From Escherichia coli O157:H7 (lineage in GTDB: Bacteria > Pseudomonadota > Gammaproteobacteria > Enterobacterales > Enterobacteriaceae): DNA of 64,000 bases. The position numbers are program-made. Every line of letters begins with the position of its first letter. Position 1 is the first letter of the stretch. The stretch lies in assembly GCF_013167455.1 (NCBI RefSeq), contig NZ_CP038328.1. One strand, given 5' to 3'. This document shows positions 15,001 through 20,610 of this stretch, one piece after another.

Positions 15001-18000
15001 TTCGCCAATACCTATCTGCGCCGCCTGTTGAGTGACACCGGGATTTCGCGCAAAGGCGCGTAATATACTTTCCTGTAAAGATAATTGGGCAACTGGCGTT
15101 ACCGCTGGGGCATTCGCCCATTGTGGCAGCGGTGCAGCAATTGCAGCTTCTCCCATCACCATAAAACTTATAAAAAAAATAAGTCCATTATTTTTACGGT
15201 TTTTAAACTGGAATCGCGCCATAGATAAGTCACTTCCTTCCAGGTCATTATTTTAACTGGTTTTTATAACCAGTCTCGTTTTATTAAGAAGGGTAATAAC
15301 TTGTGCATCTCTTTTGTCGATCATTGATATGGGCAAAGAAATGCAGCTAAAAAGCTTATACGTTATTTATTTAGAATACACTACGACTTTTAGATTACCA
15401 TCATACACATTAAAAATAATCCACGGTAATAAGTGATTAGCATCACAGATTTATCGCGTATATATCATTTTTTTGTGACTTATTTATTAAAGGAATAAGA
15501 AAGGTAATTTGAATTAAAGACAAAGGCGCAGTACAGGCAGTACTGCGCGCAGAGAGGTGTTATACGGTTTTATTGCGCTTCATGACCATTGCCACAATAA
15601 GGCTGAGTAAGATTGCACCAATAATCCATATCAACGCACGGCTGCCCTGGGACCACAGGCTGTAGATAAAGCCAACGATCACCAACAACATCACCAACGT
15701 ACCTACGATAAGAATCGGCAACGAGGCGTGAATATCATGACGCAGGCGGATCGCCACCACAAACACCGCCAGATAGCAAATCAAAAAGGTGGCGCTGGCA
15801 ACGCTGGCGAGTGAGCCTAAATTTAGTGCCGCCGTCATCAGCATAATCAACACCACGACAATGATGTTGCCCCAGGTACTCTGCCGCCACAGGGATTTAT
15901 TCATTCGCTTCGGCAGTTCGCGTTCGCTGCCCATGTTGTCCATGATGTTAAACACGGCGAACAGGTTCGCGTTGATGGCTGAAGCCGTCGCCAGTAAAGC
16001 GCCGATGACGACGATCACATAACCCACATGCCCGAGCAGCGGAGAAGCAGCCTGCGCTACGGCGGTATCGGCATATTTTTCTAACTCTAATGCCGATACA
16101 TCGCTAAGCAAAACCAGCGCCAGCGAGATATAAAGCAACGTGGTAACGCCAATTGCCACCAGAAACGCCCGTGGCATAATGACCTGCGGATCTTTCACTT
16201 TATCCGCCGCGTTCGCCATCATGCCAAAGCCCGCATAGGCAAGGAAGGTTATCCCGATACAGGAGAAGAACGCACCGGAGCTGGGGGGCGCAGAGACGGA
16301 AATATGCGCCGGTTGCAGCGACCAGACACCGGCAATAATCAGCAATAACAGGATCATCATTTTAATGCCGACGAGGATCACCTCCAGCCGCCCTACCGCA
16401 TGGTTGCTTAAGGAGTTGAAAAGCGTCATCACCGCAATGATCCCCAACGCGTAGAGCAAAATAAGGTGCTCCTCCTGGCTGCCTTCATGCAAAAACTGCA
16501 CGGCATAAGCGCCAAAAGCACGGGCGACCATGGCGATGCTCACCGCCAGCGTCAACAGGTACAGTAACGAGAGCGCCAGCGAAAAGACGCCGTTGCCTAA
16601 TCCGCGACGAAAGAAGTCGATAATGCCGCCATTGCTGGGATAGCTCGCCCCCAGACGCGCATAGGCATAACCGGAAAACATCGCCACAATACCGCCAAAA
16701 GCAAAGGCGACCCAGGTCGAGGCTTCCATTAGCAACGCAGCCTGCCCCAGCAGCGCGAAGATCCCCGCCCCCACCATTGCCCCAATGCCGATGGAAACGA
16801 CGTTCCATAGACCGAGGGGTTTGTTACCGTTATTACCTTCCGTGTTCATCATGATCAGCCCTTAAACACGTTATAGCCGAGTTGCTTAGCGACCGATGCC
16901 ACCATTTTTTGACCGCGAACACTGTTGCCTTCTTCGTCCAGCGGTGGTGAGAACGCGGCAATTCCCATCACTCCAGGGACGACCGCCAGAATACCGCCAC
17001 CTACACCGCTTTTGCCCGGTAAACCAACACGATACGCCCAGTCACCGGAGCGACCATACAGCCCTTCCATCATCATTTCGGCCAGAATGTACGGCACGTT
17101 GTCGGCCTGAAGAACGCGTTTATGCGTCAACGGATTCACACCACCCGCCGCCAGCGTCGCGCCAAGCGTTGCCAGTTCAACAGTATTGATGAGCGTGGAG
17201 CACTGACGGGTGTACACGTCACAGGCTTCCATTGCATCACAATAGAGATATCCGGCGGAGTACAGCAGCCAGGCAATGGCCCGGTTATGGAAGTTGGTTG
17301 TTTGTTCCGACTGGTTGACTTCGTCAGAGAGCGCTACCAGCTCACCAGCCAGTTGCTGTTGGATATGTAAAATTCGCTGCCAGCGTTGTTCGGCATTTTC
17401 AGCGTTAATCAGGCTGGTGGTGGCAATAGCGCCAGCATTTACCAGTGGCGACAGCGGTTTGCCGCCATGCAACTCTAAGGCGATAACTGAGTTAAAGGGC
17501 AATCCGGTCGGGTCAGCGCCAATTTTGTCCTGTACCGCCTGCGGGCCGACATCTTCTAACGCAAGGGCTAACGTACAGACTTTCGAGATGGATTCCAGCG
17601 CAAAGCGGTAATCACTGTCACCCGCACTATAGACGTTGCCATCGCTGGTCACGATAGCCACTGCTGCCAGTTGACCAGGCACATTCGCCAGAAAGGGAAT
17701 GTAATCGGCATTTTGTCCGCCGTTAAGTGAGTGAAATTGGGTGTAAGCCTGATCCACTGCCTGCTGTAATTTGTTTGCATCTAACATCTTTTGTTAACTC
17801 CTTTTTATAGATGCGGGAGGTAATTCCTCACCCCGGTGCCGATTTTCAGGCATCCTGATTTAACTTAGCACCCGCAACTTAACTACAGGAAAACAAAGAG
17901 ATAAATGTCTAATCCTGATGCAAATCGAGCCGATTTTTTAATCTTTACGGACTTTTACTCGCCTGGGTTATTAATTTCTTGACCTTCCCCTTGCTGGAAG

Positions 18001-20610
18001 GTTTAACCTTTATCACAGCCAGTCAAAACTGTCTTAAAGGAGTGTTTTATGTCACAAACTATCGACCTGACCCTGGACGGCCTGTCCTGCGGTCACTGCG
18101 TTAAACGCGTGAAAGAAAGTCTCGAACAGCGCCCGGATGTGGAACAAGCGGATGTGTCTATCACTGAAGCGCACGTTACCGGGACTGCCAGTGCAGAACA
18201 GCTGATCGAAACCATCAAACAAGCGGGTTATGACGCATCTGTAAGCCACCCAAAGGCTAAACCGCTGGCGGAGTCATCAATCCCGTCGGAAGCACTGACA
18301 GCGGTTTCTGAGGCGCTTCCGGCAGCGACCGCCGATGACGATGACAGCCAGCAGTTGCTGCTGAGCGGCATGAGCTGCGCCAGCTGTGTCACCCGCGTAC
18401 AAAATGCGCTGCAAAGCGTACCGGGCGTCACTCAGGCACGGGTAAACCTGGCGGAGCGTACTGCGCTGGTGATGGGCAGTGCCTCCCCACAAGATTTAGT
18501 GCAGGCGGTGGAAAAAGCGGGCTACGGCGCGGAAGCGATTGAAGATGACGCGAAACGCCGCGAGCGCCAGCAAGAAACCGCCGTCGCTACGATGAAGCGC
18601 TTCCGCTGGCAGGCAATTGTTGCACTGGCTGTGGGTATCCCGGTAATGGTCTGGGGGATGATCGGCGATAACATGATGGTCACCGCTGACAACCGCAGCC
18701 TGTGGTTGGTTATCGGCCTGATAACCCTGGCAGTGATGGTTTTCGCCGGCGGCCATTTTTACCGCAGTGCATGGAAAAGCCTGCTGAACGGTGCGGCGAC
18801 GATGGATACGCTGGTGGCGCTGGGTACGGGTGTGGCGTGGCTCTATTCGATGAGCGTCAACCTGTGGCCGCAGTGGTTCCCGATGGAAGCGCGGCATCTT
18901 TACTATGAAGCCAGTGCGATGATTATCGGTCTGATTAATCTCGGTCATATGCTGGAAGCGCGCGCACGTCAGCGTTCTTCAAAGGCGCTGGAGAAATTAC
19001 TCGATTTAACTCCGCCGACGGCGCGCCTGGTTACTGACGAAGGTGAAAAAAGCGTGCCGCTGGCGGAAGTTCAGCCAGGCATGCTACTGCGCCTGACGAC
19101 GGGCGACCGCGTGCCAGTAGATGGCGAGATTACCCAGGGCGAAGCATGGCTGGATGAAGCGATGCTGACGGGCGAACCTATCCCGCAGCAAAAAGGCGAA
19201 GGCGATAGCGTCCATGCCGGGACAGTGGTACAGGACGGTAGCGTTCTGTTTCGCGCCAGTGCGGTTGGCAGCCATACCACGCTATCAAGGATTATTCGTA
19301 TGGTGCGCCAGGCCCAGAGCAGCAAGCCAGAAATCGGTCAGCTGGCGGATAAAATCTCAGCCGTATTTGTGCCGGTAGTAGTGGTTATTGCGCTTGTCAG
19401 TGCGGCAATCTGGTATTTCTTTGGTCCGGCACCGCAGATTGTCTATACCCTGGTGATTGCCACCACGGTGCTGATTATTGCCTGTCCGTGTGCGCTGGGG
19501 CTGGCGACGCCGATGTCGATTATTTCCGGCGTCGGGCGGGCGGCTGAGTTTGGCGTGCTGGTGCGGGACGCCGACGCGCTGCAACGCGCTAGTACACTCG
19601 ATACCGTAGTGTTCGATAAAACCGGGACGCTGACCGAAGGGAAGCCGCAGGTTGTCGCAGTGAAAACATTTGCTGATTTTGACGAAGCGCAGGCGCTGCG
19701 TCTGGCGGCGGCACTGGAACAAGGTTCCAGCCATCCGCTGGCGCGGGCGATCCTCGATAAAGCAAGCGATATGCAGCTGCCGCAGGTCAACGGTTTCCGC
19801 ACATTGCGCGGGCTGGGCGTGAGCGGTGAAGCTGAAGGTCATGCGTTATTGCTGGGCAATCAGGCGCTGTTAAATGACCAGCAAGTTGATACTAAAGCGA
19901 TTGAAGCAGATATTTCAGCTCAGGCATCGCAAGGGGCAACGCCTGTGCTGCTGGCGGTTGACGGGAAAGCGGTAGCCCTGCTGGCTGTACGCGATCCGTT
20001 GCGTAGTGATAGCGTGGCGGCGCTGCAACGTCTGCATAAAGCGGGATATCGTCTGGTGATGTTGACCGGGGATAACCCAACCACCGCCAATGCGATCGCC
20101 AAAGAAGCAGGGATTGATGAGGTGATCGCCGGGGTGCTGCCGGACGGTAAAGCCGAAGCGATTAAACGCCTGCAAAGTGAAGGACGTCAGGTGGCAATGG
20201 TGGGCGACGGCATTAACGATGCGCCAGCGCTGGCCCAGGCGGATGTCGGCATTGCAATGGGCGGCGGCAGTGATGTTGCCATTGAAACCGCGGCGATTAC
20301 CCTGATGCGCCATAGCCTGATGGGCGTTGCGGATGCGCTCGCTATTTCCCGCGCAACGCTGCGCAACATGAAGCAGAACCTGCTCGGCGCGTTTATCTAC
20401 AACAGTATCGGTATTCCGGTCGCCGCCGGTATTTTGTGGCCGTTTACTGGAACACTGCTTAACCCGGTAGTTGCCGGAGCGGCAATGGCGCTCTCGTCGA
20501 TTACCGTAGTGAGTAACGCCAACCGGTTGCTGCGGTTTAAACCGAAGGAATAAGTACGTCATTGCGGATGCGCTGCTTTAGGGTGGCGCATTTGGCATCG
20601 ACGCATGACT

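Follow-up and report, generated by a model that had tools for sequence, protein, structure and literature searches.

Where does cueR lie in Escherichia coli O157:H7, in which a CueR-type operator stands in front of copA and the regulator gene is out of sight, and which of the two known spacings between operator and regulator gene, that of O157:H7 or that of K-12, came first? We examined a 64,000-nucleotide stretch of O157:H7 DNA (the window). We have high confidence in a joint answer: copA has a CueR operator, cueR acts on it in trans from 27.7 kb away, and the shorter K-12 spacing is derived by deletion. Identity, gene order, distances, the relic described below and the breakpoints were computed here, while the mechanism of binding and activation comes from the literature on K-12.

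The promoter block at 17979–18009 was read directly from the window (TTGACCTTCCCCTTGCTGGAAGGTTTAACCT), and its parts and the gene that it precedes are as follows.

17979–17984, plus strand: −35 hexamer of PcopA, TTGACC, read from the sequence and the same in the K-12 copA and K-12 cueO promoters
17985–18003, plus strand: 19-bp spacer from −35 to −10, counted from the sequence, 2 bp above the optimum
18004–18009, plus strand: −10 hexamer of PcopA, TAACCT, from the read, K-12 identity and a pattern match
17983–18001, plus strand: CueR box, the perfect dyad CCTTCC-N7-GGAAGG
18049–20553, plus strand: copA, Cu(I)-exporting P-type ATPase of 834 aa, from the ORF and the RefSeq annotation of identical O157:H7 sequence

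The MerR-family layout that the sequence-only reading had described (19-bp spacer, dyad CCTTCC/GGAAGG) was confirmed, and the promoter is base-for-base identical to that of K-12 copA. As in other MerR-type metal-responsive promoters, the −35 and −10 hexamers are separated by a spacer of 19–20 bp and the dyad lies within or overlaps that spacer. The dyad extends to a 7-7-7 form (ACCTTCC/CCTTGCT/GGAAGGT) and overlaps the −35 by 2 bp with 6-bp arms, or by 3 bp with 7-bp arms (from 17982). Between the last base of the GGAAGG arm (18001) and the first of the −10 (18004) there are 2 bp, the gap described for wild-type PcopA (PMC8169799), and the copA ATG at 18049 is 40 bp downstream of the block. 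A standard scan of 17700–18150 for sigma-70 promoters with 16–18 bp spacing found none, as expected because the copA promoter has a 19-bp spacer.

A consensus match is not function, and on that general caveat the dyad could be a fortuitous palindrome and the copA promoter wrongly assigned. We consider this extremely improbable. The perfect 12/12 dyad occurs once in the 64 kb, and the combined frame of −35, dyad and −10 also gave a single match, against 0.00 expected (100 shuffles). The site is 40 bp upstream of a copper-export gene, and 5422 of the 5426 complete E. coli genomes carry the copA promoter region. The core box and 19-bp spacer of PcopA have been characterised experimentally and structurally (biochemistry and cryo-EM; PMC8169799), and the chance reading is refuted because the O157:H7 site is identical to the experimentally defined one. 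A relaxed search of the window, allowing up to two mismatches, returned five dyads against 1.9 expected, which is chance level; the four two-mismatch matches were rejected as second CueR boxes on that ground. Of the features that mark an operator of the CueR regulon, the core box, a copper-homeostasis gene downstream and a cueR in the same genome are all present here, and CueR binding with Cu(I)-dependent activation has been demonstrated on the identical K-12 sequence (PMC8169799). From its identity to K-12, 17979–18009 is predicted to be the CueR-dependent, MerR-type promoter/operator of copA. The copA operator of O157:H7 is the reference CueR site, unchanged, and is already known biology.

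By the mechanism published for this same sequence in K-12, CueR would bind as a dimer to the dyad, which lies in a spacer that at 19 bp is over-long. CueR without Cu(I) would keep the promoter in a repressed shape, and Cu(I)-CueR would bend and under-twist the spacer, allowing sigma-70 RNA polymerase to engage both hexamers and transcribe copA. In O157:H7 the protein would act in trans, its gene lying 27.7 kb off, directly downstream of O-island 28 (OI-28), a type I secretion and giant-adhesin locus. Because CueR acts in trans, the extra distance between operator and cueR should not matter and is presumably without regulatory consequence.

The genes to the left of the operator, and cueR itself, are arranged as follows.

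16855–17787, minus strand: glsA (ybaS), divergent from copA, from the ORF and O157:H7 annotation
15560–16852, minus strand: ybaT, APC-family permease, from the ORF and O157:H7 annotation
15526–15548, minus strand: intrinsic-terminator-like hairpin 3′ of ybaT with a 9-bp stem and T-rich tail, from a terminator scan
13867–15222, minus strand: TolC-family outer-membrane gene (tolC28/Z0608), the first in OI-28, from the ORF, annotation and PMC12758282
1–13764, minus strand: giant BapA/SiiE-related adhesin gene that continues past the left edge of the window, a siiEA pseudogene in PGAP
−10137 to −9730: cueR, roughly 9.7 kb beyond the window's left edge, in window coordinates placed from PA20

The window holds no CueR-coding sequence: a tblastn search with CueR gave no match better than E = 1.6, as anticipated by the sequence-only reading, and a cueR paralogue within the 64 kb was rejected on the same search. 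The position of cueR was taken from O157:H7 PA20, in which the gene is annotated and to which the window is 100% identical over 22,263 bp. Beyond the adhesin gene and outside the window come ABC and HlyD-family genes and then cueR. Its product of 135 aa differs from K-12 CueR only by D103N (134/135 identical). In K-12 the order is copA(−)/glsA-ybaT-cueR(+), with cueR beginning 124 bp past ybaT, so the earlier reading was correct in placing K-12 cueR just beyond ybaT. The distance from dyad centre to cueR is 27,722 bp in O157:H7 versus 2,557 bp in K-12, which bears out the expectation that cueR would be found beyond the adhesin operon and farther from copA than in K-12. "Beyond" can be made more precise: in PA20 the stop codon of the HlyD-family gene and the start codon of cueR overlap in the sequence ATGA, so that cueR abuts the operon. 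The earlier reading also had a type I secretion (T1SS) locus occupying the K-12 position of cueR. The locus does lie between ybaT and cueR, but the K-12 arrangement against which it was measured is itself derived.

Judged by alignment, the short K-12 spacing is the product of a 25,166-bp deletion, and the O157 type is not the product of an insertion, because the K-12 ybaT–cueR spacer holds a frameshifted relic of the HlyD-family gene. In alignment, the 94 bp just before K-12 cueR correspond to the 3′ terminus of the HlyD-family gene of O157, with 91.6% identity and a single 1-bp gap that breaks the frame. The relic matches HlyD-family residues 370–391 (tblastn, E = 8e-9), and in a K-12 derivative PGAP calls it a frameshifted pseudogene with its N-terminus missing. 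The left breakpoint falls at window 15531/15532, inside the ybaT terminator, which is intact in O157 but in K-12-type genomes lacks its 3′ arm. The predicted folds differ to match, with a dG of −16.6 kcal/mol (z −4.7) in O157 versus −7.1 kcal/mol (z +1.1) in K-12. The locus would have been lost in a single deletion, running from the ybaT terminator to within ~94 bp of the end of the HlyD-family gene, in the line from which about 82% of sequenced E. coli descend. What lies upstream of K-12 cueR is accordingly a decayed HlyD-family 3′ end fused to a truncated ybaT terminator.

The opposite history, in which OI-28 was inserted into an ancestral, K-12-like ybaT–cueR spacer in the O157 lineage, was implicit in the earlier reading, and PMC12758282 implies it by writing of "acquisition of OI-28". 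It would account for the absence of the island from K-12 and most other genomes (the intact junction was found in 959 of 5426 complete E. coli genomes, ~18%), its patchy, pathotype-linked distribution (PMC12758282) and the AT-rich intergenic region between ybaT and tolC28. We nevertheless judge it very unlikely, and as between K-12 and O157 the sequence already contradicts it. An empty site cannot retain part of an inserted gene, yet K-12 keeps the frameshifted end of the HlyD-family gene, and this remnant stays in register with the start of cueR and has diverged further than the sequence around it. K-12 also lacks a terminator arm that O157 possesses. Furthermore, the intact junction occurs in another Escherichia species cluster (Escherichia sp. 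E1V33), and in E. whittamii HlyD-family sequence runs past the K-12 breakpoint, over the ~120 bp available upstream of cueR.

K-12-type genomes probably share one breakpoint. Partial junction matches began at query position 497 in all 24 rows sampled, one of which ended early; this was a spread sample from ~4,465 K-12-type genomes. A codon-degenerate pattern for the junction of HlyD end and cueR start found four loci among 100,044 species genomes, all in Escherichia, although the pattern is strict and absence outside the genus is weak evidence. The locus may have been acquired earlier, before E. coli diversified. The absence of OI-28 from K-12-type E. coli thus reflects a deletion that left a relic, and is not evidence of acquisition by EHEC.

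We also considered how cueR is transcribed in the undeleted arrangement. Crude scans upstream of cueR, one of which covered 550 bp, found no sigma-70 consensus promoter in either K-12 or O157, and a literature search for a cueR promoter returned nothing. Transcription of cueR in O157 may come from an internal promoter, or from read-through of a 25-kb operon containing a nonsense codon, as translation of the adhesin gene shows an in-frame stop at 9379–9381. The OI-28 genes are controlled by RstA and Ca2+ through a promoter that precedes tolC28 (PMC12758282), and the RstA box published there, TAATTCAAATTACC, is found at window 15503–15516. For K-12, a ybaS-ybaT-ybbI operon has been predicted (PMC1526738).

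The displacement of cueR could be functional, with cueR the terminal, translationally coupled gene of the RstA/Ca2+-regulated secretion operon in OI-28-bearing strains and, through deletion of the ybaT terminator, fused to glsA-ybaT in the K-12 type, so that CueR dosage and with it the copper response would be wired differently. The ATGA overlap, the shared direction of all PA20 genes from tolC28 through cueR, the empty promoter scan, the ybaT terminator that is intact in O157 and destroyed in K-12, the predicted K-12 operon and the published control of OI-28 all fit such a scheme. Even so, we think it unlikely. The adhesin nonsense codon favours polarity and would make dependence on a distal promoter risky, and weak internal promoters, which are common, could escape a consensus scan. 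CueR has zeptomolar affinity for Cu(I) and very few target sites (PMC8169799), so modest changes in its dosage may be invisible. More doubtful still is the corollary that CueR levels are set by different inputs, the OI-28 operon in ~18% of genomes and an acid- and copper-responsive glsA-ybaT unit in ~82%, and that deletions of OI-28 or hlyD28 could perturb copper homeostasis. If such rewiring were real, hlyD28 or whole-OI-28 deletions in virulence studies could be polar on cueR. As cueR starts inside the hlyD28 stop, any such deletion in O157:H7 calls for a check on cueR polarity.

Set beside known systems, the O157:H7 site matches K-12 PcopA, the CueR operator reportedly described in Outten 2000 and Stoyanov 2001, throughout the 31-bp block of −35, spacer and −10. 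Its distance to the copA ATG is equal and glsA is divergent in both. Just two substitutions separate the 261-bp intergenic regions, both upstream of the −35, whereas the regulator gene is 2.6 kb from the operator in K-12 and 27.7 kb in O157. K-12 PcueO, the second CueR-activated promoter, likewise has TTGACC and, placed identically within a 19-bp spacer, CCTTCC-N7-GGAAGG, but drives a different gene and differs from O157 copA in its N7 (CGTAAGG versus CCTTGCT) and −10 (TATGCT versus TAACCT). The Salmonella copA-cueR divergon has the same regulator, target and MerR-type 19-bp-spacer promoter, with cueR adjoining copA divergently and no glsA or ybaT (PMC1526738). In Escherichia, by contrast, glsA-ybaT stands between copA and cueR, joined in the undeleted type by the 25-kb secretion locus. 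That locus, which separates ybaT from cueR here, is OI-28 of EHEC O157:H7, tolC28-rtxA28-rtxB28-hlyB28-hlyD28 (PMC12758282); its published account makes no mention of cueR, ybaT or copA and speaks of acquisition, whereas the relic in K-12 points to loss.

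A CueR-type operator with a 19-bp spacer and a CCTTCC/GGAAGG dyad had been claimed for window positions 17979-18009, and the sequence there, TTGACCTTCCCCTTGCTGGAAGGTTTAACCT, confirmed that layout. The two hexamers and the spacer were read directly from the sequence.

Elements of the copA promoter (window coordinates)
17979-17984: -35 hexamer, TTGACC
17983-18001: perfect dyad, CCTTCC-N7-GGAAGG (7-bp arms when the flanking A/T pair is counted)
17985-18003: spacer, exactly 19 bp
18004-18009: -10 hexamer, TAACCT
18049: ATG of copA, downstream of the promoter

Searching the 64-kb window for the dyad returned five matches (1.9 expected), of which only that at copA had zero mismatches; the other four, with two mismatches each, resembled those in shuffled sequence. 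The joint frame of -35, dyad and -10 matched once (0.00 expected). A sigma-70 scan at 16-18 bp spacing found no promoter in the glsA-copA interval, which is the appearance expected of a promoter with a 19-bp spacer. Also conserved was the slippery site CCCAAAG (18249-18255), at which programmed frameshifting in copA yields the soluble CopA(Z) chaperone annotated in K-12. Rfam matches above the gathering score were obtained for the REP-derived element naRNA4 downstream of copA (20665-20742) and for the sroB/ChiX sRNA between ybaP and ybaK (22040-22123, - strand).

A tblastn search with CueR across the window found nothing (best E-value 1.6), bearing out the claim that cueR is not in it. Many E. 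coli O157:H7 chromosomes carry the 5.1-kb stretch around the promoter at 100% identity, and the window's first 22,263 bases matched strain PA20 (NZ_CP017669.1; locus L001, in which position minus 18,738 gives the window position) with zero mismatches. The K-12 gene order is copA(-), glsA(+), ybaT(+), cueR(+), with cueR starting 124 bp past ybaT, as had been stated. The co-directional genes after ybaT in PA20 are as follows.

First: TolC-family gene
Second: BapA/SiiE-related adhesin pseudogene, 20 kb
Third: type I secretion ABC permease/ATPase
Fourth: HlyD-family adaptor
Fifth: cueR (window coordinates -10137..-9730)

The sequence-only reading had placed cueR beyond the adhesin operon, farther from copA than in K-12, and had proposed locating it and comparing the spacing; it is indeed present in PA20 after the HlyD-family gene, whose stop codon overlaps the cueR ATG as ATGA. 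From the dyad centre to that ATG is 27,722 bp in O157:H7 v 2,557 bp in K-12. The two CueR proteins differ only by D103N. On the other side of cueR, outside the window, a second O157:H7-specific segment of ~2.6 kb (L001 5967-8600) encodes a YadA-family autotransporter adhesin, a lipoprotein and two small hypothetical proteins, whereas in K-12 the stops of cueR and ybbJ abut.

The locus between ybaT and cueR is O-island 28 (OI-28; tolC28, rtxA28, rtxB28, hlyB28 and the HlyD-family gene, hlyD28). OI-28 promotes early EHEC adherence, is activated by RstA and Ca2+ via the region upstream of tolC28, and has been described as an acquisition in a paper that does not mention cueR, ybaT or copA (PMC12758282). 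The giant adhesin gene contains a single in-frame stop (9379-9381, - strand; ...GNSDN*THTVTV...), after which the frame continues. That stop accounts for there being two 'RTX' ORFs, Z0609/Z0615 (rtxA28/rtxB28), and for PGAP treating the gene as a pseudogene.

A secretion locus does occupy the K-12 position of cueR, as had been noted, but it is the K-12 arrangement that is derived. The 124-bp K-12 ybaT-cueR spacer is composite: its first 28 bp match O157 sequence just after ybaT, and its last 94 bp match the HlyD-family gene of O157 at its 3' end (91.6% identity, one frame-breaking 1-bp gap). This relic aligns by tblastn to HlyD-family residues 370-391 (E=8e-9), and PGAP calls it a frameshifted pseudogene without an N-terminus in RP437, a derivative of K-12. 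Because an empty site cannot hold part of an inserted gene, the K-12 type is, judged from these alignments, the product of a 25,166-bp deletion (L001 9104-34269; window -9634 to 15531), and the relic argues that the absence of OI-28 from K-12-type strains reflects loss. On the left, the deletion breaks within a terminator-like hairpin.

Features after ybaT (window coordinates)
15526-15548, - strand: terminator-like hairpin, 9-bp stem, T-rich tail
15503-15516, - strand: published RstA box of the OI-28 regulatory region, TAATTCAAATTACC, directly after the hairpin (PMC12758282)

The hairpin folds at -16.6 kcal/mol (z -4.7) in O157; K-12 lacks its 3' arm, and the equivalent fold is -7.1 kcal/mol (z +1.1). 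cueR (94.6%) and the relic (91.6%), at L001 8601-9103 v K-12 locus L010 13900-14401, were the most diverged K-12/O157:H7 segments in a 48-kb stretch, neighbouring genes being mostly 98-99.5% identical and copA, ybbJ and ushA ~96.7%. This divergence suggests old haplotypes or recombination around the indel.

The HlyD-cueR junction was kept in 959 of 5426 complete genomes (17.7%). From the genomes of the other type 24 were sampled; the match began at one query position in 23, and that of the 24th started there too but ended early, which suggests a single deletion event. When one genome per species was scanned with a codon-degenerate pattern, the junction was found in Escherichia only. It was intact in Escherichia sp. 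E1V33 (HlyD-family protein 99% identical), and in E. whittamii HlyD-family sequence ran past the K-12 breakpoint across the ~120 bp examined upstream of cueR. It was frameshifted in one divergent genome titled E. coli, SCPM-O-B-8794 (L004 6919-7480), by a 2-bp insertion in the HlyD-family 3' end; the CueR ORF of that genome is 147 aa, with a C-terminal tail that differs after CCHH. Escherichia sp. MOD1-EC7003 (L007 6700-6940) carries a K-12-type relic upstream of cueR; its PcopA is intact and its glsA has a large internal deletion.

As CueR is a diffusible dimer acting at few sites, the shift of cueR from 2.6 to 27.7 kb should leave copA control unaltered. Expression of cueR itself might be wired differently in OI-28-bearing and K-12-type strains, which we regard as rather improbable. 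Loss of the ybaT terminator in K-12 fits the ybaS-ybaT-ybbI operon predicted there (PMC1526738), and O157 cueR could be transcribed from an internal promoter in hlyD28 or by read-through from the secretion operon. Scans of both arrangements for a consensus promoter ahead of cueR found none. Because the adhesin gene carries a nonsense codon, O157 cueR is unlikely to depend solely on the distal secretion-operon promoter.

The operator is real, had been correctly interpreted and was already known; what is added here is the polarity of the deletion, its exact breakpoints and the hlyD28/cueR stop/start overlap, and nothing else. PcopA is a CueR-specific promoter with a 19-bp spacer, whose core box CCTTCC-N7-GGAAGG overlaps the -35 by 3 bp and lies 2 bp from the -10; the Cu(I)-CueR dimer was shown by cryo-EM and transcription assays to bend and under-twist the spacer, allowing sigma-70 holoenzyme to engage both hexamers (PMC8169799). 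The window agrees with every published feature of this geometry (spacer, core box and placement relative to -35 and -10). K-12 MG1655 has the same 31 bases upstream of copA, and across the 261 bp between copA and glsA it differs by only two substitutions, both upstream of the -35. Of 5426 complete E. coli genomes, 5422 have the promoter region, with at least 95% identity in all but 15. By its sequence, 17979-18009 is the reference CueR operator without alteration. In K-12 the cueO promoter is built alike (TTGACC, a 19-bp spacer with CCTTCC-N7-GGAAGG in the same register, followed by TATGCT). The Salmonella arrangement is a simple copA-cueR divergon that lacks glsA and ybaT (PMC1526738).
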